From Candidatus Saccharimonadota bacterium (lineage in GTDB: Bacteria; Patescibacteriota; Gracilibacteria; Absconditabacterales; Absconditicoccaceae), in contig OZ246420.1 of the NCBI GenBank assembly GCA_965231145.1, positions 1,075,294 through 1,107,293 of the forward strand: a DNA stretch of 32,000 nt, read 5' to 3'. Below, piece after piece: positions 206 to 29,887 of the stretch. Below the pieces are notes generated by a model, which saw only the letters and a list, made by a program, of their open reading frames with translations, had not been told where the DNA came from and made no database searches. How positions within the stretch are numbered: position 1 is the first letter of the stretch; every line of letters starts with the position of its first letter. The position numbers were made by a program, and so were the translations under genes.

Positions 206-907
206 TTAGTTAGCGATCTTATTCATAGCTTGTTGCTTCTTTACCTCTTGAGTTTCCACTGGCGCAGACTTTGCCTTTACCAATATATCTCCTTTTGAAA
301 TCCATACTTTTACACCTATGATTCCATATTTTGTAAGAGCTGTTGTATAATGATAATCAATATCTGATCTTAATGTCTGGAGCGATACTCTTCCTTCTGA
401 GAATTTTTCACTTCTTGAGAGATCAACACCACCAAGACGACCTGAAACCTGAACCTTTATACCCGTTGCTCCCTTTTCCATTACTTTCTGGAGAAGAGTT
501 TTTGCAACGCGTCTAAATGGCATACGAGCTTCTATCTGACTTGCAGCAAACTCAGCCATGATCTTAGCTGAAAGCTCAGGGAGTCTTACATCTTTCAATG
601 CAACTTTAAACTCACGACCGAACTTTTTCTGCAGGAGTTTTGTGAAAGCATCAAGCTTTGCTCCGTCTTTTCCGAGAATAACAGCTGGCTTTGCAGTAAA
701 GATGATCACTTCACCTTCTTTATCGGTTTTTCTGATCACCGTCTTTGCAATACCCGCTCTCACGAAAGTAGACTCAACAAGAGCTCTTATCTTGATATCC
801 TCAACAAAGAACTGAGCGCCTTGAGACTTAGTTTTTGCAAACCACTCTGAAGACCACGCTTTCGTGATACCCGCTCTAAATCCTCCTGGATGTACTTTTT
901 GTCCCAT
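206..907 (-). CDS. rpsC: 30S ribosomal protein S3
   Basis: 233-aa ORF starting MGQKVHPGGFRAGITKAWSSEWFA..., with the KH and S3-C signature. Operon position is between rplV and rplP. Confidence 0.95.
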   Translation of the reverse strand: MGQKVHPGGFRAGITKAWSSEWFAKTKSQGAQFFVEDIKIRALVESTFVRAGIAKTVIRKTDKEGEVIIFTAKPAVILGKDGAKLDAFTKLLQKKFGREFKVALKDVRLPELSAKIMAEFAASQIEARMPFRRVAKTLLQKVMEKGATGIKVQVSGRLGGVDLSRSEKFSEGRVSLQTLRSDIDYHYTTALTKYGIIGVKVWISKGDILVKAKSAPVETQEVKKQQAMNKIAN

Positions 908-919
908 AAGAATGAAAGT

Positions 920-1258
920 TTATTTAGTATCTAAAACAACTCTAACAAATGCTCTATGTTTCACATATGCGTGTATTCTTGATCTACCAACAAATCTATT
1001 TCTTTTGATCTCCTGGCCGCGACCCACATTGATATGTGAGATATAGAGCGCCTGTGCTTGCTTCCCGGCATTGGTGATAGCATTAGATTGTGCTGATCTT
1101 ACGACCTTCCAGAGCATCTTTGCTGCTGCTTTTGGCGTATGTTCAAGAACATTGAGAGCTTCATCAACTTGTTTTCATTGGACGAGTCTCGCTAAAAGCT
1201 GCATCTTCTTGTAAGATGTTAGTGCGTATTTAAGCGTTGCTGTAAGACTTTTATTCAT
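920..1258 (-). CDS. rplV: 50S ribosomal protein L22
   Basis: The track ORF 920-1117 extends upstream through one in-frame TGA to the ATG at 1256-1258. The result, MNKSLTATLKYALTSYKKMQLLARLVQ-G-KQVDEALNVLEHTPKAAAKMLWKVV..., puts the TGA on the Gly of the conserved L22 LVRGK motif. Confidence 0.9.
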
Positions 1259-1300
1259 GATATCACTACAATAACAATCGGATAAAAACAAACGAATACT

Positions 1301-1558
1301 TTAGAATGGATGCCCTTTAAACGTTCTTGTGAGGACAAACTCACCGAGTCTATGACCTATCATTTCTTCATTGATATAGAGACTCACAAACTGCTTTCCA
1401 TTATGGACAGCAAAAGTGAAACCAACCATCTCTGGAAGAATTTGAGATGCCCTACTCCACACTTTTATCACCTTTTTATCTCCGCTCTCATTCATCTTCT
1501 GTACTTTTTTTAGAAGAGATTCAGCGACGAAAAAGCCTTTTTTGAGTGATCTTGTCAT
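1301..1558 (-). CDS. rpsS: 30S ribosomal protein S19
   Basis: 85-aa [22 protein letters not shown]...[23 protein letters not shown], a typical S19. It lies between rplB and rplV. Confidence 0.95.
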
Positions 1559-1675
1559 TACTTATAGACTATAAAGCTAAATATATTACATAATTCATAA
1601 TTCAGAGATCAAGTTCAGAATGAAATACGGAGTAGATCCTTATTTAATTTTGCTCTCTAATTTCTGCTTTTTGAA

Positions 1676-2521
1676 TTAATTTTTAGTTCTTTTAGATACA
1701 ATAAACTTGTTAGACCACTTCTTACTATTTCTTGTTTTCTTACCTGCAGGTACTGGACGCCCACTAAATGTCTTAGGGAACCTCAAACCAATCTCTGCAT
1801 GTCCTTCTCCACCTCCGTGCGGATGGTCAACCGGGTTCATTGATTTACCGAGTACGTGAGGTTTTCTACCCATCCATCTCTGTCTTCCCGCTTTTCCGAT
1901 AACAACGTTCTTGTGATCTTCGTTACCAAGCTGACCGATAGTTGCAAAACACTTCTCATCAAACTTTCTTACTTCACCAGAAGGAAGTTTTACGAATACA
2001 ACACGAAGCGCCTCATCTTTACCAACGATCTCTCCATATGAACCAGCAGACTTAATGATCTTTCCTTTCGTGAAAGGAGTAAACTCAAGATTGAATACCT
2101 GAAATCCTTCTGGAATATCCTTAAGCTGTTTTCTGTTTCCAGCACTAAGAGTAGCCTGGTCTCCTGTCATGAAGGTATCTCCTACCGAAACCCCTTTCCA
2201 CGCCAACACATATCTTTTTTCTCCGTCAGCATAGTTTACGAGAGCAATTCTTACTGTTCTATATGGATCATACTCGATCTCCGAGACTTTTGCAGGGATA
2301 TTCAACTTATCATATCCTCTGAAATCTACGATACGATAGAGTCTTTTATGACCTCCTCCCATAAACCTTGACGTAACTCTACCGTATTGATTTCTTCCGG
2401 CAGTTGCTCCAAGAGTTTTCACAAGAGACTTTTCTGGTCTCTTTTTCGTAATATCGGAAAAGTCATATCATACCATAGAACGTCTAGATGGAGTATATGC
2501 TTTATACGTTTTCACAGCCAT
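1676..2521 (-). CDS. rplB: 50S ribosomal protein L2
   Basis: The track ORF 1676-2422 extends through one TGA to the ATG at 2519-2521 (MAVKTYKAYTPSRRSMV-G-YDFSDITKKRPEKSLV...). It contains the GGGHKRLYR and NPVDHPHGGGEG motifs. Confidence 0.95.
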
Positions 2522-2557
2522 TGTTACGAGAATGCGTTGATGAAAAATAAAGAATAA

Positions 2558-2899
2558 TTATTCAGCAATAGAGAGAGTTTCTCCCTTCTTAAGAGCTACG
2601 ACAGCTTTCTTGTACGCGCGTCTTACGAGGGTTCTATTTGCTCTTCCCTTTTCCTTTACCCATGCCACATTTACTGAGACTGGAGTAACATTGTATACGA
2701 TCTGTATAGCGTTTTTCACATCTATCTTGTTAGCACCTGCATGTACTTTAAATGAGTACTTCTGAGCATCATCCGACCCCTTATACGCCTTTTCTGTAAC
2801 AATAGGCGCCAAGATAATCTGATAAGGACTAAGCTTAAGCAGAGCTTTTGGAGAAGACGACTTCTTTGCTCTCTGTCTGAGTATTTGCTTAAAGGTCAT
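2558..2899 (-). CDS. rplW: 50S ribosomal protein L23
   Basis: 113-aa ORF containing IILAPIVTEKAY...FKV. Operon position is between rplD and rplB. Confidence 0.85.
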   Translation of the reverse strand: MTFKQILRQRAKKSSSPKALLKLSPYQIILAPIVTEKAYKGSDDAQKYSFKVHAGANKIDVKNAIQIVYNVTPVSVNVAWVKEKGRANRTLVRRAYKKAVVALKKGETLSIAE

Positions 2900-2956
2900 G
2901 GTAACACATAATACGAGTAATAAATATATTCAGATGTTTCACAATCAAATGCTCTA

Positions 2957-3592
2957 TTAAGAAACCAGTGCTTCAATTTTTTCAAGAGATCCATCAAGAA
3001 GAAGAACCTTATCATACTGAAGAAGATCTACTGGGTTGATATAATCAGCGAGGATATACTTTGTGCGAGGAATGTTATTCAACGATTTCTCGATTACCTC
3101 ATTCTTTTCAGACATAACGATGAGTGTTTTCTTCTCAGCCAATCCAATCTTACCAAGCATAGTTATAGCAGACTTCGTCTTGATAGCTGCAAGAGGATTT
3201 GCCTCGAGCCCAAGAAGTTGATCGTTCTTTGCCTTAAGAGTGATGATACCACACAATGCAAGCTTCTTCATTTTCTTATTCATAGCTTTACCGTGATTGA
3301 CATCGTTTCTTGGTCCAAACGCCACACCTCCGTGCTTTCTTATAGGAGAACGGCTTGATCCAGCTCTCGCACTACCAGTACCTTTTTGTCTGAATAGCTT
3401 CTTTCCAGAACCAGCAACCTCTGCTCTCGTTTTTGTATGAGCAATAGGATTGCGGGCATTAGCCTGCTGAAGAAGGAAGAACTCATGGATAAGGTCGTCG
3501 TTGATTCTTTCATCATTGAAAAGAGTTTCATTGAGCGAAAGCTTTCCTGTTGCCTTTCCGTCTTTATTGTAGACTTGTATCGTATATGTCAT
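2957..3592 (-). CDS. rplD: 50S ribosomal protein L4
   Basis: The ORF contains KGTGSARAGSSRSPIRKHGGVAFGP. I chose the start at the internal Met (MTYTIQVYNKDGKATG, ATG 3590-3592) because the 13-aa upstream extension looks non-native. Confidence 0.9.
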   Translation of the reverse strand: MTYTIQVYNKDGKATGKLSLNETLFNDERINDDLIHEFFLLQQANARNPIAHTKTRAEVAGSGKKLFRQKGTGSARAGSSRSPIRKHGGVAFGPRNDVNHGKAMNKKMKKLALCGIITLKAKNDQLLGLEANPLAAIKTKSAITMLGKIGLAEKKTLIVMSEKNEVIEKSLNNIPRTKYILADYINPVDLLQYDKVLLLDGSLEKIEALVS

Positions 3593-3644
3593 ACTTACAC
3601 ACAAAAGTAATTTAAATAGAAAAGTGTTCAAACCATGATATCGA

Positions 3645-4250
3645 CTATGCTACATACACAGCCACGAGACTATTATATGCACCAGGAACAGACCCTCTTA
3701 TAGCAATGAACTTATCATCACCCACGGTAATAATATCTGCTATAGGTCTATGCTGCAAGGTAACAGTCTCGGTACCCATATGTCCAGCATGAGGATGTCC
3801 TTTCTGTACTCTTCTTGGCTTTCTATTACCAAGAGATCCCACGTGTCTATGAAACTTTGAACCGTGTGTTTTTGGACCTCCAGCAAGATGAAACCTCTTT
3901 ACAGCACCTTGAAATCCTTTACCCTTTGAGATTCCCGTTAGAGAGACCTCCTCAACCCCTTCGAGAAGAGAAATATCAACAAAAGAACCCTCAGAAAACT
4001 TCCCCTTGAACATATCGCTCGTAGGAAACTCCTTCATCCAAGCATAGCTTACCTTCTGCCCCTTTTCCTTTGAGAGTTCTTTTTTCCCTCCGGCAAGTAC
4101 GACAGCTTCGTAGCCATCCTTTTCTTCTGTCTTATATCTAACGACCTCCTGTGGAACAAGCTGCAAAAGCGTCACCGCTACATGCGCATCGCCGATCCAG
4201 AGCTTAGTCATTTCTTTTTTTCTGACCATAAGTCACCCTTTTTTCCCCAT
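3645..4250 (-). CDS. rplC: 50S ribosomal protein L3
   Basis: The track ORF extends 7 codons through a TGA to the ATG at 4248-4250 (MGKKG-G-LMVRKKEMTKLW...). It contains KGKGFQGAVKRFHLAGGPKTHGS. Confidence 0.9.
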
Positions 4251-4308
4251 TATAGTTAACGAGATTATTAGCGAGAATAAAATATTTCGTTCGTATTGCA
4301 CACAAAAG

Positions 4309-4629
4309 CTAGAATACTTTCACCTCTACTGAAACACCAACAGGTATTGAGAGATTTTGAAGATACTCTATCGTTTTTGCTCCAGTTTCCACAACATCAA
4401 TAAGTCTTGCGTATGTTGTTCTCTCAAATTGTTCTCTTGCGTTTTTATACACAAAATTTGACCTGAGCACCGTATAAAGCTTTCTTTGCTTAGGAAGTGG
4501 TATAGGTCCCTTCATCGTTGCTCACGATTTCACAAGGAGCCCTATAATCTTGCTCGCAGAACTTTCGAGCATCTTTACATCATAGCTTTTAAGCTTTATC
4601 CTAAGCTTTGGAGATTTTACTTCTGCCAT
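4309..4629 (-). CDS. rpsJ: 30S ribosomal protein S10
   Basis: The track ORF 4309-4515 extends through a TGA to the ATG at 4627-4629. The result, MAEVKSPKLRIKLKSYDVKMLESSASKIIGLLVKS-G-ATMKGPIPLP, puts the TGA on the Gly of the conserved TGA..GPIPLP region. Confidence 0.9.
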
Positions 4630-4685
4630 ACCAGTTCGTTGTTGTGAGGAAAACTAAATATATTTAATATGCAGCACTTAGATGC

Positions 4686-4726
4686 TAGATGTTAGATTAT
4701 GACATACTGTCAACCTCTAACATCTC
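4686..4726. repeat. Intergenic hairpin built from the TAGATGTTAG / CTAACATCT motif, just downstream of tuf
   Basis: AGATGTTAGA (4687-4696) is the exact reverse complement of TCTAACATCT (4716-4725). The same CTAACATCT motif recurs at 16141-16164. Confidence 0.5.
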
Positions 4727-4751
4727 CGATCTAAATGCTATTATTAATGAA

Positions 4752-5924
4752 TTATCCGATAATCTTAGTAATAACTCCGGCACCTACAGTTCTACCACCT
4801 TCACGGATAGCAAATCTGAGACCTTCTTCCATAGCGATCTTGTAGATAAGTTCTACTGAGATCTTAGCATTGTCACCAGGCATAATCATTTCTCTTCCCT
4901 CCATACTTACAGTTCCAGTTACGTCAGTTGTTCTTACGAAGAACTGAGGCTTGTAACCAGCCATAAATGGAGTATGTCTTCCACCTTCTTCCTTCTTCAA
5001 TACGTATACCTCAGCTTCAAATTTGCTGAAAGGCTTAACAGATCCTGGCTTAGCAAGAACTTGTCCTCTTTCTACCTGGTCTTTTTCAATACCTCTGATA
5101 AGAAGACCAACGTTCATACCTGCATCAGCAGACTGATGTTGCTTGTGAAACATTTCAACTCCTGTTACTACTGTTGGAGTTGGCTCGTCCTTAAGACCAA
5201 CGATTTCGATAGGATCATTCATATTGATAACACCTCTTTCAATTCTACCCGTAACCACAGTACCTCTACCCTTAATAGAGAATACGTCTTCAACTGGCAT
5301 AAGGAAAGGCTTAGCTGTATCACGAACTGGATCAGGAATGTAGCTATCAAGAGCAGCGAGAAGATCCCACACACACTTAGCAGCACCAGCTTCGTCAGTT
5401 GAGTTTTCAACCGCCTTAAGAGCCGAACCTCTGATGATAGGAGCGTTAGCACCATCAAATCCGTTCTTAGTAAGGAGATCTCTGATTTCCTCTTCTACGA
5501 GGTCAACCATATCTGCATCCTCCACCATATCACACTTATTGAGGAACACAACGATGTATGGAACATTTACCTGCTTAGCAAGAAGTACGTGCTCTCTTGT
5601 TTGAGGCATTGGTCCGTCTGTAGCAGCAACCACGAGGATAGCTCCGTCCATCTGAGCAGCACCAACGATCATGTTCTTGATATAGTCGGCATGTCCTGGA
5701 CAGTCGATGTGAGCGTAGTGTCTTGTGTCTGTTTCATACTCTACGTGTCTTGTGTTGATAGTAATACCTCTTGCTTTTTCTTCTGGAGCATTATCGATAT
5801 CACCATAGTTTTGCGCCTTTGCAAAACCTTTTGTAGCAGCTACTGTTGTGATAGCAGCAGTCAAAGTTGTTTTACCATGATCTACGTGACCGATGGTACC
5901 TACATTAACGTGTACTTTAGACAT
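4752..5924 (-). CDS. tuf: Elongation factor Tu
   Basis: [26 protein letters not shown]..., with DCPGHADY and NKCD motifs. The start is the ATG at 5922-5924. The 58 upstream residues in the track ORF are read-through of the tRNA-Pro gene. My frame check found no in-frame CGA or CGG codon. Confidence 0.97.
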
Positions 5925-6039
5925 GTCGGATGTATAAGTATAAAAGATAAATATAAGATCCATCGCTGAAGCGACATAACGATCAAGATTCTTCCTTATC
6001 GTCATGTCGCCCCTTCGATATCGAGTGCTGTATAGAATT

Positions 6040-6113
6040 TCGGGGATGCGGGACTCGAACTCGCGGCCTCTTGGTCCCAAACCAAGCGCTCTAGCCATCT
6101 GAGCTAATCCCCG
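6040..6113 (-). tRNA. tRNA-Pro (anticodon UGG)
   Basis: The reverse complement is CGGGGATTAGCTCAGATGGCTAGAGCGCTTGGTTTGGGACCAAGAGGCCGCGAGTTCGAGTCCCGCATCCCCGA. It folds as a cloverleaf with a C1-G72 pair typical of tRNA-Pro and anticodon loop TTTGGGA. Confidence 0.85.
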
Positions 6114-6120
6114 GTAGTAG

Positions 6121-6197
6121 TGGTGGGCATAGGTGGACTCGAACCACCGACCTCGTCCTTATCAGAGACGCGCTCTAACCAACTGAGCTATATGCCC
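6121..6197 (-). tRNA. tRNA-Ile (anticodon GAU), CCA encoded
   Basis: The reverse complement is GGGCATATAGCTCAGTTGGTTAGAGCGCGTCTCTGATAAGGACGAGGTCGGTGGTTCGAGTCCACCTATGCCCACCA, with anticodon loop CTGATAA. Confidence 0.9.
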
Positions 6198-6209
6198 ATA
6201 TAAATTTCG

Positions 6210-6284
6210 TGGTGCCGGGGGGCAGAATTGAACTGCCGACACAGGGCTTTTCAGGCCCCTGCTCTACCACTGAGCTACCCCGGC
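6210..6284 (-). tRNA. tRNA-Phe (anticodon GAA), CCA encoded
   Basis: The reverse complement is GCCGGGGTAGCTCAGTGGTAGAGCAGGGGCCTGAAAAGCCCTGTGTCGGCAGTTCAATTCTGCCCCCCGGCACCA, with anticodon loop CTGAAAA. Confidence 0.9.
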
Positions 6285-6643: not shown

Positions 6644-7570
6644 ATGTTACACAAACTACGCTTACATGACGCACCCTTTCGCAATATAAAAAAAGGCATC
6701 AAGAACGTTGAAGCCAGACTCTTCGATGAGAAAAGACAACAGATACAGCCTTGAGATACCATTATATTTATCAATAGAAAGCATCCTGAACAGAAAATAC
6801 ACACAACTGTAATAGAACTTTTTCACTACCCAAGCTTCAATGCAATGTTCAAGGAGCTTCATGAAAAATATCGACCTCGGTCCTCACGAGAAGAGTTGGA
6901 AGATTCTATGCTACAATACTACTCTACTGAAGAAGAAAAGAAATATGGGGTGATTGGCATCAAAATACAACCATTCTCTCCACAAGAAGAGACGCTCGCT
7001 ACATACAATGAAAACATTGACGCATATATGGCAAACACCATATCTACCCCCTCAGAAATCTTAAAATATTGGATTAAACGCTCCTTACAATGAGTTCCTC
7101 ACACAGGCACTATCCTAGAAGTTGGCACATGAGGCGGAAGAGATGCTGATTATATCGAATCATTATGATTTAATATATTAAGGAGCGACGGAGCAACAGG
7201 CTTTGTGGAATACCATCGCAATATGGGAAAAAATGTTTTATTATACAATGTGCTCACCGACGAATTACACGATGAGTATGATCTTATTTTCGCTAATGCG
7301 GTACTACTCCACTTCCCTCACTCTGAAGTCGAACACATTCTCAAAAAATGGAAACAACATCTTACACCAACAGGAAAAATATCTCGATGTGTACAAGAGT
7401 GAGTTGGAGAACAATTGAAAGAAAATAAAAATATGAAGAGATATTTTTATTTCCGAAGCGAAGCTGAGGTAAAAGAAGTAATGAAAAATTTGTGATATAA
7501 AAATCTGGATGTATGGGTAGATGAACCTGAACCCGGAAAAAGATGGATACGCTGTATAGCAACTTTATAA
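6644..7570 (+). CDS. Fusion protein: N-terminal ASCH (PUA-like) domain plus C-terminal class I SAM-dependent methyltransferase
   Basis: One 308-codon frame results once six TGA codons are read as Gly. The N-terminal part (LHDAPFRNIKKGIKNVEARLFDEKRQQIQP-G-DTIIF...YYSTEEEKKYGVIGIKI) is ASCH-like. The C-terminal part carries methyltransferase motif I, ILEVGT-G-GGRDADYIESL-G-F, then YDLIFANAVLLHF. The gene holds 4 CGA and 1 CGG codons. Confidence 0.65.
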
Positions 7571-8664: not shown

Positions 8665-9363
8665 TTATAATATATTTTTCGTCTGTTCTTTTCTCCATTT
8701 TTCAATCTCAGCATGATGGCCGCTGAGCAACACTTCTGGCACCTTATATCAAAAAATTTCCTCCGGTCTTGTATATTGTGGATATTCTAAATTACGCATG
8801 CTCTGCTCAGGACTATAACTCTCTTGGATATGGCTTTCTTCCTCCTTGATAACTCATGGTATCAGCCTTGCTATCGATTCTATAGCAACCATGGAAGGCA
8901 GCTCTCCACCTAGGGTTACAAACCTTCCCATCGACAATTTTACAAATTGTGCCGGATACTTCTCCTGCATGTATTGTTCAAATCTAAAATCTATCCCCTC
9001 ATAACGCCCACACACAAAAATAATATTTTTTAGACCATCGGCGTACTCATAGGCAATCTCCTGGTTGAATATTTTTTCCGACGGACTCATATAAATCACC
9101 TTCCAGGTGGAATTCGAAATTCAAAATTCTAAATTCTTAATTATTGATTCGACAGACTCAATGATCGGTTTTGCTTTCATGAGCATCCCCGCTCCTCCAC
9201 CATAAATCTCGTCATCGACCTGTTGTTGTTTATCCAGACAAAACTGACGCGGATTGACGAAAGAAAACGACAGCACACCTTTGTCGATCGCTTTCTTTAA
9301 AAGCGATGTTTGAAGAAAAGAATCGTATATTTCAGGGAAAAGAGAGACGATATGAAAGTGCAT
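8665..9363 (-). CDS. trmD: tRNA (guanine37-N1)-methyltransferase
   Basis: The track fragments 9121-9444 and 8854-9099 plus the tail join through three TGA codons. The start is MHFHIVSLFPE (ATG 9361-9363). Motifs are [51 protein letters not shown]. I saw no CGA or CGG codon. Confidence 0.9.
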
Positions 9364-12259: not shown

Positions 12260-15200
12260 TTACTGTGACCATGTGAATGGGAAAGCACCAGTATTCTTGT
12301 AAGATGAAGTGTCATTGATAACAACGTCACCATTGTCAAGCTTATCAAGGTATGATACGTTTGTAAGGTTGAGACCCATAGGGTTAGAAGTTGTACCATT
12401 CAATGTCGCGATTGGATTAACAACCTTGATAGAGAATGTTATCGTAGCCCCATTAGAGATTTCAACTGGCATACTAGCACCTGCTCCGCTGAAGTTAATA
12501 GTACCAGCTGATCCAGAGTAGATAAGATCACCTCCAAGACCATTCTTGTACACATTAACAACTGGTGCAGCAGCACCGTAACCTGTTGTATTTACTAGAT
12601 CAAATGTGAATCCAGTAACTTGAACTCTATTACCCTTAGCAGTTACATCAAATCTTGCAAACTCAGAAGTCGAAGGAGTTACGTTTACCTTAGAAACAGA
12701 TACCGCACCTCTTGCGATCTTAGTAGACTGAGAAATAGCAACTGTAGGATTAGATACAGCAGTAACAAGCTGTCCATTAGATTTAGAGATAGCTCTTACA
12801 CCACTGTAAGTACCAGCAGTCTGATCAGCAATATCGTTAGCTGTATCGAATGCAAATGTGAATCCTGTAGTTACGTCACCTGTATTAAGAACTGAACTGA
12901 TGTCAGCCTTGATAGAGTAAGTCTTAGTCTGTGAAACAGCAAGACTGTTGTTTGACATACTTTCGAATGCAATTACACCGTTTCTGATTGTACCGAACCA
13001 AGAGTTAGTACCATCAGTAAGCTGTACATTGTTGATCTTGTTAGCAAGGTTTGTTCCGAGACCACCATTTGCCTTAACGTAGAGATCAGTGAGATCAACT
13101 GCATCGTTCTTACCTTCAAGGTTGAACTGAGCGATTGTCACGTTTTGCTGACCACCGTAAAGGAGTTGTGACTGGAGTGATGAGTTAGCTGCAACTTCTA
13201 CTGTAGCAGAACCATTGATAGTGAGTGTACCACCCGCTACGTCAGTTACTGTAACAGAATTAGAAGTTACTGTATCTAGAGCATCAACGTCAGTAAGCGT
13301 AAGCTTCAATGTATCAGTTGTACCAGCAGTGAAGTTACCTCTTACAGTCCATGATACTGGAGCGTTCTTCGCTACAGTAATATTGAGGCTAGAGAATGTG
13401 ATCTTACCGTTTTGGTATGTAGCAGTCTTAACAGCATTACCTTGCGCGTCGTAAAGAGTTGCAGTAAGCTTGTTGTTGAATGCGCTTTGTGGAACTACAC
13501 CAGCTGATGTTGCACCAGAAAGAGTAATCTGATTGATTCTAATAGAGTTAGCCTGAGATGTTGAGAATGTAGCACCGTAAAGGAGCTGATCCTGAGCACC
13601 GTCAACAACTGTCTTAGAAGAGATACCGTCAGTTCTTGAAACAGCAAGTTTAGAAGCTACGATAGTGATTGTTGCACCTTCGATAGAACCAACTGAAGCT
13701 GATCCAGAAACTGCGTTTTGGTTATTCTGATACTCTGCAGTGTCAAAACTGTCGAGTGTGAGAGGACCAAATTTGATAGTAGCAGCACCAGCGTTTGACT
13801 TAATGTCAGCTGTAAGCTCTACGTCAACTGTACCATTGATAGCTACTGAACCATCAAATGATGCAGCTGTAAGACCTGTTCCGCTATCTGCAGACCAAGT
13901 GAACGTAGAACCACCGATTCTAAGTTTGTATGAGTTAGCGATGTTACTTGCTCCTGTAGAAGCAGTGAACGCTAAAGCAATATCCTCGAGGTATACTGGA
14001 CTCTTAGCAGAGATAGTACCCTTAAGAAGAACTGAACCGTTAGTACCTGGAGAAATACTGTTAGAGAGTGAGAAAGCTGAATCTCTCTTGAACATTACAT
14101 CAGCACCATTTACTGTGTAAGTCTTAAGTGTTGGAGTTCCAGATACTCTTACTCTAAATGCAGTTGTTTCTTCGATAACATTGAGATCAGAAGTGTTTCT
14201 GAGTCTGAAGATATATGTATCACCATCAACACCGTCAACATAGTTAACAGTACCTCTGATGTAGTAGTTAGCAGTCTGTCCGTCCTTGATTTCGTCACCG
14301 TTACCAAGACCGAATGTAAGATCCTTACCATTCATAACTGTTACAGTTGATACCTTAGTACCGTTTCTGTAAAGAGCTACATTTGAAAGGCTAGTAAGAT
14401 CTCCATCACCATCCTGTCTAAATGTTACTGACTTGAAGCTAAGATCTCTTTCGTCAGCACCAGTAGAAGAATCGATAACTCTGAACTGACCAATTTCAAG
14501 ATCAGTAGCATCAGTAGCAGTTGCAGTAAGTCCTGCACCAGCTTCCTGGATAGTTACCAATGAAACAAGGTAGTTAGCAGTTCTAAGTGTTGGAGTAGTA
14601 ATCATACCAACTACATTAGCAGCAGTACTGTCGATAGATGTAGACTGGAACATATGTTCACCTCCTACATTAGCAGCAGCCATGTCAGCGTAAAGGTCGA
14701 TAGATTCAGTTGTTCCTGCCTTGATCACCCATGCTGGTGCGAAGCTAAGAGTAACTGTCTGATCAGAACTTACCGAAGCTCTAGAAGACACTCTGATACC
14801 GTCTTTTTCGAAGTATACTCTAGAAATGTCAGACGCGTTACCGAGTCCTGATCTCTTAAGAGTTACTGAATTAACAGTAATGTCCTTAGAACCTGCAGCA
14901 AAGTCTACAGTAGCGAACTTCACTGAACCTGCTTGAGGAACAGAAGAAAGGTTTGCTGGAGACGCAGAGTTCATTGAGATATTGAGGTTACCTTCTCTTA
15001 CAACGATAGGACCAGTAGAACCAGTACCATTGTTATTACAAAGAGTTGGATCAATATCACAAAGACCATTGTTGTCTATTGCCAATCTGTAGAGCATGAG
15101 CATCATGTCACCTCTAAGGATTGATTGACTAAGCATAGCGTACTTCATGATCCCCTTAGAGTTAAGGAGTTCGAAGTGAGCTTGTTCAGAAGACATAGGA

Positions 15201-15628
15201 TCAATTTCACCGAGCATACGAGATACTACAGTTGCAACCTGACCTCTTGTTACTTCTTGCTTAGGCATGAACTTACCATCGTGTCCCATCATGAGACCGA
15301 GGTTACAAGCAGCTGTGATGCTGTCAGTAAGAGTGTCGTCAGCCATAGCGGTATCTGTGAAATCGCAGCTTCCTGCAACTTCTTCGAGACCGAGTACTGA
15401 CATACCAAACTGGCTAGCAAATTTAGCAAATTGCTCTCTAGTAAGATTTGCGTAAGGCATAAATGTGTCTGTTCCGCTGTACTTTGTCAAACCTGCATCG
15501 TAACCCCAAGAGATCGCGTCGATCATTTCAGGATCAGTTACTACTGGAGCTCCGTAAGCGAGACCAGTAACGAGTTGACTAGCAACAACGGCAGCAGCAG
15601 CTGATGTAGCAATAAGCTTTTTCAACAT
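12260..15628 (-). CDS. Putative S-layer / cell-surface protein: signal peptide, three SLH-like repeats, then a long Ser/Thr/Gly/Asn-rich region of repeated beta-type modules
   Basis: The start is placed at MLKKLIATSAAAAVVASQLVTGLAYGAP (ATG 15626-15628). SLH-like segments are IDAISWGYDAGLTKYSGTDTFMPYANLTREQFAKFASQF, FTDTAMADDTLTDSITAACNLGLMMGHDGKFMPKQEVTRGQVATVVSRML, and a degenerate third ending ILRGDMMLMLYRL. The remaining ~900 aa is low in charged residues and shows recurring VTL..SG... and V.L.DG motifs. It is an uninterrupted 1122-codon frame with a strong terminator. Confidence 0.75.
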   Translation of the reverse strand: MLKKLIATSAAAAVVASQLVTGLAYGAPVVTDPEMIDAISWGYDAGLTKYSGTDTFMPYANLTREQFAKFASQFGMSVLGLEEVAGSCDFTDTAMADDTLTDSITAACNLGLMMGHDGKFMPKQEVTRGQVATVVSRMLGEIDPMSSEQAHFELLNSKGIMKYAMLSQSILRGDMMLMLYRLAIDNNGLCDIDPTLCNNNGTGSTGPIVVREGNLNISMNSASPANLSSVPQAGSVKFATVDFAAGSKDITVNSVTLKRSGLGNASDISRVYFEKDGIRVSSRASVSSDQTVTLSFAPAWVIKAGTTESIDLYADMAAANVGGEHMFQSTSIDSTAANVVGMITTPTLRTANYLVSLVTIQEAGAGLTATATDATDLEIGQFRVIDSSTGADERDLSFKSVTFRQDGDGDLTSLSNVALYRNGTKVSTVTVMNGKDLTFGLGNGDEIKDGQTANYYIRGTVNYVDGVDGDTYIFRLRNTSDLNVIEETTAFRVRVSGTPTLKTYTVNGADVMFKRDSAFSLSNSISPGTNGSVLLKGTISAKSPVYLEDIALAFTASTGASNIANSYKLRIGGSTFTWSADSGTGLTAASFDGSVAINGTVDVELTADIKSNAGAATIKFGPLTLDSFDTAEYQNNQNAVSGSASVGSIEGATITIVASKLAVSRTDGISSKTVVDGAQDQLLYGATFSTSQANSIRINQITLSGATSAGVVPQSAFNNKLTATLYDAQGNAVKTATYQNGKITFSSLNITVAKNAPVSWTVRGNFTAGTTDTLKLTLTDVDALDTVTSNSVTVTDVAGGTLTINGSATVEVAANSSLQSQLLYGGQQNVTIAQFNLEGKNDAVDLTDLYVKANGGLGTNLANKINNVQLTDGTNSWFGTIRNGVIAFESMSNNSLAVSQTKTYSIKADISSVLNTGDVTTGFTFAFDTANDIADQTAGTYSGVRAISKSNGQLVTAVSNPTVAISQSTKIARGAVSVSKVNVTPSTSEFARFDVTAKGNRVQVTGFTFDLVNTTGYGAAAPVVNVYKNGLGGDLIYSGSAGTINFSGAGASMPVEISNGATITFSIKVVNPIATLNGTTSNPMGLNLTNVSYLDKLDNGDVVINDTSSYKNTGAFPFTWSQ

Positions 15629-15692
15629 GTGTCGTTGTAAAAAAGGAAATAAATAGAATGGATAAAACATCCATAAATTAAAACATCCCAAT

Positions 15693-15708
15693 CCGTGTCT
15701 CCACACGG
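15693..15708 (-). promoter_or_regulatory. 5' leader hairpin upstream of the S-layer gene
   Basis: CCGTGT-GGAG-ACACGG on the minus strand lies about 65 nt upstream of the start codon. It is preceded by TTGACA-N17-TAATGT. Assigning it a leader or stabiliser role is inference. Confidence 0.35.
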
Positions 15709-15924
15709 TTACATTAGTAATACTCATCTACCCTGTCAATGCAAGTCTTTTTTGACACAACACGACAGACATATTTTGCTAGGTAGATACTGACTTATAT
15801 GTAACACATCAGTACCCTAGATACGAGCAAATTCGGTTTTTGTGACACACATATATACATTAATATAGACATAGAATAGATTTATTTAAGACACATTAAG
15901 CCTTGACCGGTTTCATAAAATAAA

Positions 15925-15973
15925 AAATAATAAATAAAAGATAAGAAAAAAATCATCTCTTATTTATTATTTA
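15925..15973 (-). terminator. AT-rich inverted repeat downstream of tRNA(CCG); possible terminator
   Basis: AAATAATAAATAAAAGA (15925-15941) pairs with TCTCTTATTTATTATTT (15957-15973). A T-run follows on the minus strand. Confidence 0.35.
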
Positions 15974-15999
15974 TCATCTGTAGATTTATAAGTTGTACT

Positions 16000-16070
16000 C
16001 AAGAGAACCAGGGATTGAACCTGGACTATCAGCTTCGGAGGCTGATGTGCTACCACTACACCATTCTCTT
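16000..16070 (-). tRNA. tRNA with anticodon CCG (nominally Arg) but tRNA-Trp-like identity features
   Basis: The reverse complement is AAGAGAATGGTGTAGTGGTAGCACATCAGCCTCCGAAGCTGATAGTCCAGGTTCAATCCCTGGTTCTCTTG. It has an A1-U72 pair, a G5-C68 pair and discriminator G73. Anticodon loop CUCCGAA equals the Trp loop CUCCAAA with only position 36 changed, and keeps A37 rather than G37. The D-loop AGTGGTA has U at position 20, not the A20 used by ArgRS. Confidence 0.8.
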
Positions 16071-16093
16071 ACGGTAATAACAATTGGATTATA

Positions 16094-16164
16094 AATGTTA
16101 GATTTAGCATTTCGATTGTCGAAGATCGACCATCCAGCTGCTAACATCTAAAATCTAACATCTA
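16094..16164. repeat. Intergenic element with two copies of CTAACATCTA and a complementary ATGTTAGATTTAGCA arm
   Basis: CTAACATCTA occurs at 16141-16150 and 16155-16164. ATGTTAGATTTAGCA (16095-16109) can pair with TGCTAA...AATCTAACAT. The same motif forms the hairpin at 4686-4726. Both copies lie just 3' of minus-strand genes (comEC, tuf). Confidence 0.5.
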
Positions 16165-16178
16165 ATTGCTTATGTGTT

Positions 16179-17669
16179 TTATCCAGACCTGCGCGACAAT
16201 AACACAATTGCTGTTATAAGTCCAAAAGTAACAATAAGTATGACAATTCTGGCTCGTCATGTTTCTGCATGTATAATAATACTATGATCAATACTTCGTT
16301 TATTGACAGCATAGATTCGCCGTACGGACCATAGCTGCGGATAAGCAAGTCGGCGGTACGCAGTAACACTATAGAGAAGTGCCGAGAAAAATCCATAGAT
16401 CATCACGAGCGGCACAAGCGGAACGATAAGCACATTCGACAAGATAGACACAAGATTGACGCGACTGGTAAAGAACAAAAGAGGCGTAAAAATACCGAGA
16501 GCAGCAGCAATGCTAGGCAACAAATAGAGATTCCGGAAACGACTTATCAGATCCTTCAACAATGCTTTATATTCACGAAATTTTATTTTCTTTGTAGTGT
16601 CTGCTCTTCGGCGCTGCGAAAAGAAAGCAAGTCATGCTAGCGCAGTAAAGCTAAAAATAAATCACAAATCATAAAGAAGATAGTAAGGGTTTCGTAGAAG
16701 CATGGCTACATAGACATACGCCATATTGCACCATACATGCAGCGCACGACCCAAAAAAACCGCACTGATGCTCAATAACGCCATAAGTGATGCGCGCACC
16801 ACTGAACTATCCCAACCACACAATGATGCATACATAATAACAGACAGAGCAAGAATCGCAGACCTAAGATAATAGGGCAAAAAGAACAACAATGCAGACA
16901 AAAAAGAAACAAGGAGCACTATATTTCATCCGCTGACCGCAATAATGTGGACAAGTCCTGACTCTACAAAAGAGCTATACTCCTCTTTCGAAAGATGCGA
17001 ACGATCACCCATAAACATCCCGAGAGACAATCCTAATACTCTTCCATCATAGAGCCCCTGATAGAGTCATATGAGCTGCTGACGTCGTGCGAGTAATCGA
17101 GATGACGAACCTTCGCCCACCACAATACCCTGCTCCTCATATAAAAATCACACTCTCTCTTTCATTATCATCCAACGATCCATGTCAAACTCTCGCTCTA
17201 CAGCGCCTACTAACGCGGCTTTTTGGCGCAAAGACAACCAGACAGGAGCCGCCCACCAATCTCCACTGAGAGAGATTATCTTCGGTTGCGCCACAGCAAA
17301 AACAATGCTTCCGAGGGGATAATAAGCATCGCTATAATAGAGAAAATCTCTTCCCTCTCTATCGCGAAAAACATATCTCTCACTCCCCTGATTTTCTATG
17401 ATCTCTCCAGTTCCTGAATATGTGGATCACACCACTCCCACCCTCTCCTGATATGAGGAGATAAAAAAAGACACGCTGGCGACAGTCAAAAAATATGTCA
17501 ATACGACAGATCAAATTTTTATAAAAGACAACTTAACGGATCTTTTTTGTAAAAACGACTGAACCAAAATTCCTACAATGAGAAAAAATCACACTCCCGC
17601 CGCTGGCCGAAAATTTCCGAAAAAAGTATGAAGCGCCACAAAAATACTTATCGACAATATGAACAACAT
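16179..17669 (-). CDS. comEC: ComEC/Rec2-family DNA internalisation channel, short form (496 aa, no C-terminal metallo-beta-lactamase domain)
   Basis: One frame joins the track ORFs 16257-16562 and 16662-16919 and an N-terminal region when TGA is read as Gly. Motifs are GLVHIIAVSG-G-NIVLL, CGWDSSVVRASLMAL and YDL-G-FIFSFTALA-G-L. The N-terminus has TM helices and an OB-like region (EFDMDRWMIMKERV-G-FLYE). The stop is the TAA at 16179-16181. Confidence 0.8.
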
Positions 17670-17803
17670 TTTTTGTTTTGGTTTGCACAATTAAATATGA
17701 CATTTTAGACAGAAGATTGACAAACAACCTTGCACAATTTTATTTACTTTTTTGATCCTCATTAGTTTACTTCAATTTTTGTTTTTAATCTTTTATTTTT
17801 CAT

Positions 17804-18763
17804 TTACCCGAGATTGTACTCCTCTAAAAATTTTTGTACTTTTTCCTGATAAGCGATCGATTTTGCTTTTATGCCCAACAAATGAAGGATAAAAAGGAAA
17901 TGAAGACGAGAGCCGACAGCAGTAGACGACCTAGACATAAATGTCAACGTCGTGTCAATATCGTTAAACCATCGTTCGTAACTTATTATTTCAGGAATGA
18001 TAACTTTTAGTTGTCATAGCATGTCGACATCTTCTTGTCAACATGGAAAGAACACACATTGACAATGTCACCAGAGATCGACAGACAGCTTAATCGTTTC
18101 TAAGTCTGTCAAAGAGTGGCGATATGGTGTCAAGTTTATTAATCCATATTTATGGCTTTTAGACTGATCTTTTATGTCATTTTGACAATGTTGCCACCTA
18201 TTGACAACTTCTGTCGCAAAATCAGGGTGGTGGACAAGGTTGTCGTGATTATTTCAAAGGTATTTAGCCAATATTTCGTATGATAACCTTTCCCTAGCAA
18301 CCAGTTTTTGACACCTTTTGACTGTCAACTTGTAAAGGAGCTTCATCCGTCGACGAGTAGGAGTCCCAAATCCACCCAACATGACAACATTTTTTCTTAT
18401 AAAATCTGTAGCAAAAAGGATATAATAATTTCGTCATCCATAAAACCATCCGCGAGCTTGAGTAAAAACTTCTCATCATCCGAAGAATTTTAATGCTTTA
18501 GGATTGCACAATCATTTCGTGATGATTTTCTTGTAATTGTTCTTTTGAATGCTTTCTAGTTTGCACAAATCTATATCTAAATAATGGCGATTTTTGTCTA
18601 TTCGGCCGTCAAATCGCTTCTTATCGCCCACCTCTATATAGAGTTTTTCTATCGTAGGGTAGTGAGCAAAAATTCGATTTATGACACCGAAAACCAGTAT
18701 CTCGTCTCCAAAATTTTTATACCCATAATAGCATTTAAGATATCCTTCTTTGGGGTCACGCAT
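17804..18763 (-). CDS. csaB: Polysaccharide pyruvyl transferase, CsaB-like
   Basis: The 319-codon frame runs through multiple TGA codons. The N-terminus YLKCYYGYKNFGDEILVFGVINRI matches the G(Y)YG..N.GDE motif. It continues FF-G-G-GEVFTQARGWFYG-G and MLGGFGTP (the GQGIGP-equivalent position). Confidence 0.6.
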
Positions 18764-25352: not shown

Positions 25353-26051
25353 CTACGAACTACTTCTTCCTATGACGACACCCCAAATCACTATGCGAGG
25401 ATAGAGCTTTTTCAACGCTTTTGCCGCAGCATTAATCGTCGATCATGTTGTCGTTACATCGTCAACAATAAGGACAAATTCATCTCATTTTAATGAGATA
25501 TTGCTACGTAATGAAAAAACGTCTTCCAGATTTTTCATCCTCTTTATACGAGAGAGGAATGCCTGTATGCGAGTATGTCTGTTTTTCATGAGCAATGGTT
25601 CATACGTCATTCATAATTTCTGTGCGACGCCAGAGGCAAGGAGGTCTGACTGGTTGTACCCTTTGATAAAATATTTTCTGTATCGATGAGAAGGGATCGA
25701 TGTGATGACGACACGCTTTGTGCGGAATCATTTTTGTAATGTCTGATTTGTTTGGATAACAAGCGAAAGACGATCAACAAGAAACGAAGCGACATCGTAG
25801 CGATGATAATATTTGAGCTGCAAGATAAGTTTTTTTAATAAATCGTGATATGCAAACCCGATAGCGATGCCCTGATAAGCGACCTCATGTCTATAGTCTA
25901 GATGTACCGCAAAATCCTGAGAGAAGCGATGGCTCACCGGACAAAGCTCCTGATGTGGTTGAAGCGTCTTTTTGCATTGCGAACACAAATAATCACCAGC
26001 ACTCTGACACCCTATACACAGCTTTGGAAATAGAAGATCGATGAGTTTCAT
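25353..26051 (-). CDS. comF: ComF-family protein (zinc finger plus phosphoribosyltransferase-like domain)
   Basis: MKLIDLLFPKLCIGCQSAGDYLCSQCKK..., extended through TGA codons past the track ORF end. Motifs are KGYNQSDLLA and EFVLIVDDVTTT-G-STINAAAKAL. An alternative start lies at 26093. Confidence 0.8.
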
Positions 26052-26177
26052 TTTATCTTTGTAATAAAAAAATATCTGCAGTGAAGCAGACATTTCATGT
26101 TCAGTAAGATAATATAAATCTATGATAGTTTTCCTTTAATTGTTCATTCGTAATTATTAATTTGTAATTGAATTACA

Positions 26178-26335: not shown

Positions 26336-27451
26336 ATGCGCATAGCTTTCGCCGGAGGAGGAACATGATGACATGTTTTTCCGATTAGAGCGCTGATACA
26401 ACATATTTATTCGCATGGTGAATACAAGCGCAAAGCTGAAGCGCTCGTACGATTTGGCGAAAAGTGAAGCCTCGAAGAGCATGTCGCAAAGGAGTTTTCT
26501 GATGTGAAATTTGTGCCTATTGTTTCCGGAAAGCTCAGAAGATCTCCATCATGGAAAGAACTTGCAAAGAATATGTATGACCTGGGATCTATGACATACG
26601 GAATCATACAATGTCTCAGGTTATTGAAGAAGCATAAAATCGATGTGATCTTCTGCAAGGGAGGATATGTCTCATTGCCAGTAGTTATAGCCGGACGAAT
26701 ACTTCGCAAAAAAATCATCCTTCATGAATCAGACACCAAAGCGGGACTTTCTAACAAGATCTGCGCAAAATTTGCGAACCACATCTTTACCGGCTTCGCC
26801 GGAGTTTTTCCCCATAGAGAAGTCGTTGTCTGACAAATCTTAAGCAATGATTTGCTCAATAATTCTAAATCAAACTTGGAACCTGAAACTATAGATAGAA
26901 ATTGAGCTCCGAGAATTGAGAATTGAGAATCAACGAAGACAAGCATTTTAGTCACTTGAGGCTCTCAGGGGGCAGAATCGGTTTATAGACCTCTTGCGGC
27001 GCTTATTAAAAAAAACGGCTACAAGGGAAGCCACTTTCACATCGTTTTAGGAACGAAAAACACTGGATTGAAATCTCTTTTTGAAGGGCTGAGCAACACC
27101 ACCTGCTATGATTTTGTCAGTCAGAAGGAAATGGGTGGATTACTATCGCTGTGCGATGCGGCAATAACGCGCGCGGGAACAACATCGCTCGCCGAGGAAA
27201 AACTTTTTTGATTGAAGCTTGTTATTGTTCCTATCCCATGGACACATGATCAGCTAAGAAACGCGGAGTACTATATGAAACGTCATGGAGATCTTTTGGT
27301 AAAACAGGATGATAGTTTCTTATTGAATCTTCCTATTGCGCTTGATGTGATAACAAAGCATAAAAAAAACCGGACTCAAGACAATATTGAGACCGATATT
27401 AATAATGCTAAGGATGTTGTTTGTCAGCAGCTATTTGACTCTCTCAGCTAA
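26336..27451 (+). CDS. murG: UDP-N-acetylglucosamine--N-acetylmuramyl-(pentapeptide) pyrophosphoryl-undecaprenol GlcNAc transferase
   Basis: MRIAFAGGGT-G-G-HVFP, then KGGYVSLPVVIAG.ILRKKIILHESD, ILVT-G-GSQGA and ITRAGTTSLAEE. Six TGA codons read as Gly. CGA codons lie at 26450-26452 and 26696-26698, and a CGG at 27371-27373. Confidence 0.9.
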
Positions 27452-28336: not shown

Positions 28337-29887
28337 TTATACATTTTCTACAAACATCGTTTTGCTTCTATATTGCATAGCTTCTGCAATGTGGGGTACA
28401 CCGACAATTTCTACTCATTCGACATCTGCTATAGTACGGGCAAGCTTGAGCATACGATGGATGACGCGTCAAGACAAATGGAGTTTTTTTGCAGCTTGTT
28501 TCAGGAAATTTTCTGCTTGTTCATCGAGAACTATGTACTTTTGAATTTCCTTAGACGTTACTCATGCATTAGAAAAAATACCGGTTCCTACATATCTTTT
28601 TTGTTGTATCTCCCAGGCATGCATTACTTTTTCACGTAATAATTCAGAGCTTACTCACTGGATCTTTTCAAAGAGCGTATCGACATTTTCACGTGGTATC
28701 TCTAGAATCATATCAATCCTATCCAGCAGTGGTCATGAGATCTTCGACTGATAACGTTTAATATCAAGCAATCAACAAACACATGATTTTTCAGGATCTT
28801 TATAGTAGCCACACTTACATGGATTCATCGCAGAGATAAACATAAAATGCGCAGGATACCAGACTGATCACGCTGCACGAGAGATCGTTATCTGTTTGTC
28901 TTCTATGGGCTGACGAAGCACCTCCAAGACTTCACGTGGAAACTCAGGAAGCTCGTCGAAAAAGAGTATTCACTTATGGGCAAGCGACACTTCTCATGGT
29001 TGCAGGCTGGCTCATCATCATATGATAGACACTTTACTCGCTGTATGATGCACCGGACGAAAAGGGCGCTGCGTCACTAAGGGTTGCTCCTTGCTTAACT
29101 TTCCGACGATAGAATAAATCTGTGAGACTTCTATCATTTCATCGAAATGAAGCGGCGGTAAGATAGACTGAAGGGCATGTGAGAGCAGCGTCTTTCATGA
29201 GCCTGGAGCGCCGACCATGAGCACATTGTGTCATCCAGCGGCAGCGATAGCAAGCGCGCGCTTTGCAACAAGATGTCACTTGATGCTACTAAAATCTACT
29301 GGGAATGTTGTAGCGCTTGTAGCAAGATCACTGAGAGATTTTGTAGTAACGAACGGCTCTCTTTTCTTTCCTGCAATAAAAAATTCTATGAGTTCAGCAA
29401 AGGTAGAGAGCGGATAGATCGTAATTCATTGGATATATTCTAACTCATATATATTGTCGCTGGGGATGAAGAAGATCGTATATCCTCTTTTCATGGCTGC
29501 GATAACTGCAGGCAAAAGACCCGTAATTCTTCTGACGGATCCGTCGAGTCAAAGTTCACCAAAGAAAAGAGTTTCTGCAAGAGTTGCTTCATGATGGATA
29601 TGTTCACTAATAAGAAAAAGTATCGCTGCAGCCATGGGCAGATCAAACTGGGTTCATACTTTTTTGATATCAGACGGTGCTAAGTTGAGAATGATTTTCC
29701 TGGGCGGAAGCTCGACGCCGGCATTACGAAACGTAGCACGCAAACGTTCTTTCGACTCCTTAATAGCCGCATCGGGCAGTCATATAATTTCTATAGTTGG
29801 AATCGCCTTATTACTATCTGCCTCTATGGTGATCTCGTGACCCTCAAGTCCAAAAGTAGCAAATGTTTTGACATATGACTGTGGCAT
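28337..29887 (-). CDS. comM: ComM/YifB-family Mg-chelatase-like AAA+ ATPase
   Basis: The 516-codon frame is recovered with ~19 TGA codons read as Gly. Motifs are [53 protein letters not shown] (Walker A), [29 protein letters not shown] and [11 protein letters not shown]. It has no in-frame CGA or CGG. Confidence 0.9.

Follow-up and report, generated by a model that had tools for sequence, protein, structure and literature searches.

A Trp-type tRNA(CCG) as the probable decoder of CGG in an Absconditabacteria genome that reads UGA as glycine

The 32-kb window analysed here (the whole stretch of DNA under study, 32,000 nucleotides of contig OZ246420.1) carries a transfer RNA (tRNA) gene with the anticodon CCG, and the question raised by this locus is which amino acid tRNA(CCG) inserts at its codon, CGG. 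The gene caller ARAGORN, which found five tRNA genes over the window, reports it at 15999-16071 on the minus strand and labels it arginine (Arg) from the anticodon; a first-pass annotation made from the sequence had proposed that CGG is decoded as tryptophan (Trp). Our analysis indicates, with a probability of about 0.88, that tRNA(CCG) is a dedicated, Trp-type decoder of CGG in an SR1/Absconditabacteria bacterium in which UGA means glycine (Gly) and both CGA and CGG mean Trp. The gene and its anticodon are as follows.

16000..16070, minus strand: tRNA gene with anticodon CCG, 71 nt, without an encoded CCA (ARAGORN, Rfam and the sequence itself)
16036..16038, minus strand: anticodon CCG, plus-strand letters CGG; Watson-Crick pairing with codon CGG only

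The meaning of the codons was read from a test that is independent of the tRNA. Window proteins and their orthologues from related UGA-sense loci were aligned with X in place of CGA and CGG, and the facing codons were then read over 80 gene pairs from 30 loci, where codon-pair counts are symmetric and several relatives may share one window site.

CGA, n=148: TGG 51, CGA 46, CGG 11, other Arg codons 0, Phe/Tyr 14
CGG, n=38: TGG 13, CGA 11, CGG 0, other Arg codons 2, Phe/Tyr 3
CGT/CGC/AGA/AGG, n=1,939: TGG 0, CGA 0, CGG 2, other Arg codons 1,308, Phe/Tyr 33

Taken together, CGA and CGG face TGG 64 times and CGT, CGC, AGA or AGG twice; for locus L041 alone, the counts are 17 for TGG and 1 for another Arg codon. 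The nominal Fisher p values, about 1e-108 overall and about 1e-29 for CGG alone, overstate independence because of the shared sites and symmetric counts. Judged from these alignments the pattern is unambiguous: CGA and CGG are synonymous with TGG in the window genome, which bears out the proposed reading of CGG and applies to CGA likewise. An alignment of CGG with Arg codons, which the first-pass annotation had named as the outcome that would speak against it, was looked for and amounts to 2 cells as against 13 on TGG. The same columns bear on the obvious alternative, that this is an ordinary tRNA-Arg(CCG) which arginyl-tRNA synthetase (ArgRS) charges despite a missing A20, so that CGG simply means arginine. 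Two CGG cells do stand on AGA, as this alternative would have it, but CGG otherwise falls on TGG or CGA and the true Arg codons never fall on TGG, and we regard it as extremely improbable.

Three individual codons illustrate the sites involved.

26450..26452, plus strand: CGA codon, MurG residue 39, a conserved-Trp position; requires tRNA(UCG)
25683..25685, minus strand: CGA codon, ComF residue 137; the 9 related loci have TGG 7, CGA 1, CAT 1
17607..17609, minus strand: CGG codon, ComEC residue 21; faces TGG in the L041 orthologue

The column at MurG residue 39 holds W in 61 and R in 59 of 120 clade homologues and nothing else, and in solved MurG structures from outside the clade (P. aeruginosa, Acinetobacter) the aligned residue is Trp. 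Residue 302, which is TGG in the window, is likewise mixed (W 84, R 34 among the 120), and such columns would be mixed because TGG alternates with CGA/CGG, which annotators translated as Arg; the invariant Arg columns of MurG (residues 68, 69 and 279) are AGA or CGC in the window. Further Trp-conserved sites with CGA or CGG lie in ComEC and pyruvyl transferase (several sites), and residue 131 of XerC (CGA) is Phe or Tyr in relatives. The KsgA positions with CGA or CGG are variable in solved structures and hence uninformative, and a solved-structure search for ComF gave no match. The window has 11 CGG codons, and those other than the one at 17607 lie at 6878, 11457, 16533, 16320, 18347, 19956, 19086, 27371, 27583 and 28255.

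UGA is also read as a sense codon in the host genome, and its meaning is Gly, as known for Gracilibacteria and Absconditabacteria. The standard bacterial code leaves the open reading frames (ORFs) of the window fragmented, and reading TGA as sense raises long-ORF coverage from 0.39 to 0.85. There are 111 TGA codons in 26 delimited window genes, TGA faces Gly codons of the relatives in 48 of 70 aligned cells, and both glycines of the universal GGTGGH motif of the window MurG (26336-27451) are encoded by TGA. Public MurG entries of the clade are mistranslated at these codons, with a mixture of G and W at the window-TGA columns and many entries taking UGA as Trp, and the consensus of the MurG alignment reads AGWGTGGH in place of the motif.

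The first-pass annotation had pointed to a published CGA/CGG reassignment to Trp in a clade of Absconditabacterales, to which it could not assign the contig from the sequence. The named relatives among the best 120 MurG homologues, and among the best EF-Tu homologues, are Absconditabacteria, Absconditabacterales, Absconditicoccaceae or SR1; EF-Tu is 94% identical to that of the nearest reference genome, JAGOPC01, and the window has a synteny block (tRNA-Phe/Ile/Pro, tuf, S10 operon) in common with CP006913.1, a complete SR1 genome, and with five others. These best named hits and the synteny place the window genome in the SR1/Absconditabacteria lineage, within the Absconditabacterales. An identical 71-nt tRNA(CCG) occurs in L041 (JAGOPC010000001.1, 'Patescibacteria group bacterium Gw_Eff_bin_18'), which also has the same gene order as the window: a large protein, pyruvyl transferase, ComEC, the tRNA and an S-layer-like protein. 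The proteins beside the tRNA are only 46-88% identical between the two, so L041 is a relative of the window genome and not the same genome. A homologous tRNA(CCG) is present in L118, from a genome labelled candidate division SR1.

The tRNA itself is real by both ARAGORN and the Rfam tRNA model, which scores 66.8 bits against 16000-16070 with a gathering score of 29; the strand, which the first-pass annotation had left unstated, is minus. The RNA of 71 nt reads AAGAGAAUGGUGUAGUGGUAGCACAUCAGCCUCCGAAGCUGAUAGUCCAGGUUCAAUCCCUGGUUCUCUUG, and every structural element that had been listed for it is present. The acceptor end has A1-U72, G5-C68 and discriminator G73 on an unusually A-U-rich stem (5 of 7 pairs are A-U), the anticodon arm has a 5-bp stem and the loop CUCCGAA (C34 C35 G36 A37 A38), the D-loop AGUGGUA has 7 nt with U rather than A at position 20, and the variable loop has 4 nt. 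The minimum free energy fold is a cloverleaf whose anticodon stem is extended by a single 26-44 pair, and the folding energy differs from that of shuffled sequences by only z = -1.9.

A contig scan of the genome collection with a pattern of D-loop, CUYCRAA anticodon loop and T-loop gave at least 120 matches, mostly ordinary tRNA-Trp(CCA), and included L041 and L118; a metagenome scan restricted to YCG anticodons yielded the family to which the window copy belongs. Among the matches listed, this tRNA(CCG) family comprises at least 13 distinct 71-nt sequences and a few of 72 nt, all from UGA-sense loci. Standard pairs fill 99.6% of the stem cells, and both partners have changed in 15 of the 21 pairs. 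Pairing and covariation are far above shuffled and slid controls, and the family is therefore a functional tRNA under selection rather than a pseudogene. A1-U72, G3-C70, G73, U20, the CCG anticodon, the loop CUCCGAA and the 5-bp anticodon stem are invariant in 13 of 13 sequences. The pair G5-C68, which had been counted among the identity elements for tryptophanyl-tRNA synthetase (TrpRS), belongs to the window copy and is not conserved, as position 5-68 is A-U in 6, U-A in 4, G-C in 2 and C-G in 1 of the 13.

The anticodon loop does not discriminate between Arg and Trp. It had been taken, together with A37, as a sign of Trp identity on the ground that CGN-reading Arg tRNAs normally have G37, but 13 of 14 CGN-anticodon Arg tRNAs (CCG, UCG, ACG, GCG) caught incidentally in our scans have A37, and the ordinary tRNA-Arg(CCG) of L200 has a loop identical to that of the window tRNA. 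In E. coli, the major tRNA-Arg(ICG) has a modified A37, and m1G37 is known only from tRNA-Arg(CCG). The informative identity features are U20, A1-U72 and G73, on which the published assignments also rely.

These features bear again on the reading of the gene as an ordinary tRNA-Arg(CCG). ARAGORN's anticodon-based label agrees with it, as do the L200 loop and C35, G36 and G73, which are all compatible with Arg identity. Against this, A20 is absent in 13 of 13 family members and kept in the Arg tRNA of related UGA-sense loci, and A1-U72 is invariant, where the Arg tRNAs with bacterial-type bodies that were caught incidentally have A20 and G1. The loci L143 and L188 are UGA-sense and carry both a family tRNA(CCG) and a tRNA-Arg(CCU), the latter with A20 in the D-loop AAUGGAUA and with A73. 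In such organisms, to judge from this comparison, ArgRS can still make use of A20 as a determinant, and tRNA(CCG) lacks it.

With tRNA(CCG) taken as a Trp-type decoder, the proposed mechanism would run as follows. Codon CGG would be paired by the anticodon C34-C35-G36. ArgRS would reject the tRNA, which is without its main determinant A20, and TrpRS would presumably charge it through G73, A1-U72 and, of the three Trp anticodon bases, the two that it has (C34 and C35), with G36 being tolerated, and Trp would then be inserted at CGG by the TrpRS-charged tRNA. Because C34 cannot pair with A, CGA needs a sibling tRNA(UCG), which is predicted to lie elsewhere in the genome and to read the 29 in-gene CGA codons of the window. 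A gene for TrmD lies in the window at 8665-9363; tRNA(CCG) is not expected to be a TrmD substrate, because TrmD needs G37 and this tRNA has A37. MiaA requires A36-A37 and would not act on a tRNA with G36-A37.

A second alternative is ambiguous decoding, under which CGG would be read as a mixture of Trp and Arg, either because TrpRS and ArgRS both charge the tRNA or because some Arg-type tRNA is left to compete with it. The bases G73, C35 and G36 are common to Arg identity, as this alternative would require, and the near absence of CGA and CGG from presumed highly expressed genes, with the single exception of one CGA in the S-layer-like gene, would fit a somewhat costly codon. We nevertheless consider it very unlikely, as CGA and CGG stand at strict Trp positions (MurG 39, ComF 137 and several ComEC and pyruvyl transferase sites) and exchange essentially not at all with Arg codons, which would be unexpected if a large fraction were read as Arg.

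Window usage per 10,000 codons is 35 for CGA, 12 for CGG and 82 for UGG, and the coding regions for ribosomal proteins and EF-Tu contain no CGA or CGG. From their distribution, it looks like the reassigned codons are avoided in highly expressed genes. There are 0-1 TGA in each of the genes for ribosomal proteins, for EF-Tu and for the S-layer-like protein of 1155 aa (206-6000 and 12260-15727), and their sole CGA/CGG codon is the CGA in the last of these. They were compared with the regions 16179-18763 and 28337-29887: there are 12 CGA/CGG codons and 9 TGA in ComEC and 7 CGA/CGG in pyruvyl transferase, and the gene at 28337-29887 has 19 TGA codons. The longest EF-Tu ORF starts inside tRNA-Pro and so gains a spurious N-terminus of 58 residues (5925-6098, minus strand), which holds 2 of the window's 31 CGA codons; the real ATG start is near 5924.

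Several observations weigh against a Trp-type tRNA(CCG) as the dedicated decoder of CGG. Among the codons, these are the two CGG cells on AGA already mentioned and a few CGA/CGG codons in Lys/Arg-rich stretches, which together leave room for some Trp/Arg ambiguity at CGA and CGG; the evidence for CGG, with 11 window codons and 38 aligned cells, is also thinner than that for CGA. In the tRNA, G73 is compatible with both Arg and Trp identity, the loop CUCCGAA is not diagnostic because ordinary Arg tRNAs carry it together with A37, and position 36 is G and not the A of tRNA-Trp, so TrpRS would need to tolerate G36. The identity rules applied here are those of E. coli and B. subtilis and not of this phylum. 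As for the partners the mechanism calls for, no sibling tRNA(UCG) was found in the 32-kb window, where ARAGORN was used, or in 12 related 20-kb loci, and among the listed metagenome matches with YCG anticodons there is none of SR1 type, the UCG matches being mostly AT-rich, mitochondrial-looking tRNA-Arg. Nor was a tRNA-Trp(CCA) of the clade found among the listed matches of the collection scans or in the SR1 MurG and EF-Tu neighbourhoods, including that of CP006913.1; the only tRNAs in these neighbourhoods are Phe/Ile/Pro, Ser, Gly, Lys, Val and CCG. In some candidate-phyla bacteria, tRNA-Trp is linked to the gene for ribosomal protein L11.

How G36 might be accommodated invites a speculation that we consider quite unlikely: a TrpRS that has become less strict, or different, in how it reads anticodon position 36, or an additional TrpRS copy for the YCG tRNAs, with residual Arg at CGG as a weaker variant. 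If an altered or second TrpRS were to exist, it and the A-U-rich acceptor stem would make a naturally separate TrpRS/tRNA(CCG) pair; if residual Arg were real, the rare CGA and CGG codons would mark ambiguity-tolerant genes. These codons are concentrated in the genes for ComEC, pyruvyl transferase and membrane proteins, and highly expressed genes have almost none.

Where tRNA(CCG) came from is a separate question from what it does now. A plain identity comparison of the window tRNA with 750 other tRNAs did not discriminate, as AT-rich mitochondrial tRNAs scored equal to Trp tRNAs. More useful was a neighbour test across the family, restricted to the 46 positions unconstrained by the search patterns, in which the 20 nearest non-family tRNAs were counted in a pool that is 24% Trp. 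For most family members, 14-20 of the 20 are Trp(CCA) and Arg appears almost never. Some CCG tRNAs of UGA-sense loci, for example that of L191, are near-identical in D-arm and anticodon stem to Trp(CCA) tRNAs of other candidate-phyla bacteria (for example L019, L102). This comparison favours descent of the tRNA(CCG) family from a Trp tRNA, without establishing it. For the window copy itself, only 7 of the 20 nearest are Trp as compared to the 24% of the pool, and the signal of Trp ancestry appears weak; if there was a duplication of tRNA-Trp, it would be ancient. The alternative for the origin alone is that an ancestral tRNA-Arg(CCG) switched identity by losing A20 and gaining A1-U72, and that no duplicated tRNA-Trp with an A36G change was involved. 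There is a published precedent in the AGG-to-Met reassignment, where the Met-type tRNA(CCU) of some Bacilli arose by such a switch, and both the unclear neighbours of the window copy and the absence of the clade's own tRNA-Trp(CCA) from the comparison leave space for it. We think this origin unlikely, although it deserves more weight than the other alternatives considered here, since the family-wide neighbours and the L191-type arms point to Trp, and the Arg(CCU) tRNA of L143 and L188 has quite a different body.

A second Trp-like type of tRNA(CCG) occurs in L125, L153, L191 and L201, all UGA-sense metagenome contigs; it starts with AGGG or AGGA and not with AAGA, and is much closer to the ordinary Trp(CCA) tRNAs of candidate-phyla bacteria. 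These contigs may be Gracilibacteria, some of which have a reported CGG = Trp.

Two elements flank the tRNA gene in the window.

16088..16115, minus strand: promoter-like hexamers TCGAAA and TATAAT with a 16-nt spacer, 10 of 12 matches in a consensus scan
15915..15989, no strand: AT-rich inverted repeat with arms of 23-32 nt, 75-87% complementary, from a repeat search

About 17 nt separate the end of the second hexamer from the 5' end of the tRNA, which lies downstream of it, and the two hexamers are no more than suggestive of a putative tRNA(CCG) promoter. The scan for promoters and terminators around the tRNA found nothing beyond chance, the number of hexamer sites not being above shuffle expectation. 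The AT-rich repeat lies just 3' of the tRNA, before the S-layer-like gene, and could be a terminator or regulatory hairpin. The spacer that separates comEC from the tRNA gene holds, at 16084-16164, two inverted repeats that overlap each other and the promoter-like hexamers; their arms are 14-18 nt long, 83-93% complementary and 39-45 nt apart.

Divergence from L041 is uneven around the tRNA. The N-terminal half of the S-layer-like protein (12260-15727, minus strand) is 88% identical to its L041 orthologue (L041 6280-7995), with 87% identity at the DNA level; identity is only 46% in the adjacent ComEC and about 46-51% in the large protein, and the tRNA that lies between the S-layer-like gene and comEC is 100% identical. 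This unevenness might reflect recombination or strong constraint. In the window, as in L041, L244 and L251, the tRNA(CCG) gene has comEC on one side and the S-layer-like gene on the other. In many related metagenome loci (L122, L136, L137, L141, L143, L152, L188, L208 and L224) it adjoins comF, which in the window (25353-26093) adjoins tRNA-Val(GAC) instead. By these gene orders, the tRNA gene or the DNA around it has changed place within the clade. The tRNA-Phe/Ile/Pro cluster (6040-6284, minus strand) sits immediately 5' of tuf and the S10 operon and is kept across SR1 genomes, with an order that varies among L244-L248 and L252-L254 (Phe-Ile-Pro, Phe-Pro-Ile or Ile-Phe-Pro).

The observation is correct and already known: both the tRNA and the variant code are published, and the window adds a copy from a further species. 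Shulgina & Eddy 2021 (eLife 10:e71402, PMC8629427) assigned both CGA and CGG to Trp in Absconditabacteria, in addition to UGA = Gly, so that, as the first-pass annotation had anticipated from such a screen, the locus is one more example and not a new code. Our knowledge of the genetic code is unchanged by it. Sense-to-sense reassignments are rare in bacteria, and each well-documented locus is therefore of some value; the window is a self-contained example, with tRNA(CCG), 11 CGG codons and 29 CGA codons within genes, and comparative DNA alone is enough to show that these codons mean Trp. There is also a practical consequence, as public databases translate CGA/CGG as Arg and often UGA as Trp, so that conserved Trp and Gly residues of SR1 proteins are systematically wrong there.

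Compared to the published Absconditabacteria system, the window has the same lineage, UGA = Gly, and CGA and CGG that are both Trp-like. In that system tRNA(GCG) is used for Arg, and tRNA(UCG) and tRNA(CCG) are consistent with Trp identity (G73, no A20, A/G1:U72) (PMC8629427). A 2026 paper in Nucleic Acids Research repeats the CGA/CGG assignment and gives all tRNA(CCG) of the order a 5-bp anticodon stem (PMC13092985). The window tRNA shares the CCG anticodon, G73, the lack of A20, A1:U72 and the 5-bp anticodon stem. No experimental confirmation of the reassignment is reported in the literature examined, and according to Shulgina & Eddy ambiguity is excludable by experiment only (PMC8629427). 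Their source table for ten species of the order gives, per 10,000 codons, CGA 13-37, CGG 1-24 and UGG 35-75 at a G+C of 0.29-0.38 (PMC8629427). The codon order is shared, with CGA commoner than CGG and both rarer than UGG, and the window G+C of about 0.40-0.41 is slightly above that range. CP006913.1 is species 10 in the published list (PMC8629427), from which the window species is absent, and we see no difference in kind.

Other lineages have reached the same solution. The tRNA(CCG) of Anaerococcus/Finegoldia and of RFN20 Bacilli (Onthovivens) places the same CCG on a body with G73, A1-U72 and no A20 (L211, L048, L203, L218), but these belong to unrelated phyla in which only CGG is reassigned to Trp, UGA is a standard stop, CCA is encoded, and CGA stays Arg through tRNA-Arg(ACG/ICG), which is present in L218. 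Their CCG solution is an independent evolution. CGA at Trp positions is what separates the Absconditabacterales from such CGG-only lineages, and it is found here (TGG 51, other Arg 0). The canonical bacterial tRNA-Arg(CCG) resembles the window tRNA in its anticodon, C35, G36, an ArgRS-acceptable discriminator G and the loop CUCCGAA (L200); the window tRNA differs in lacking A20, in having A1-U72 for G1-C72 and in a codon that does not behave as Arg. With bacterial tRNA-Trp(CCA) it has in common G73, A1-U72, C34 and C35, as well as the D-loop AGUGGUA and 4-nt variable loop of many candidate-phyla Trp tRNAs, yet its sequence is too diverged for an evident recent duplication. The tandem tRNA-Trp(UCA)/tRNA-Trp(CCA) of Mollicutes (L067) follows the same logic, a Trp body with one changed anticodon base that reads a new codon, except that in the window tRNA the changed base is 36 and not 34 and the gene adjoins no tRNA-Trp gene.

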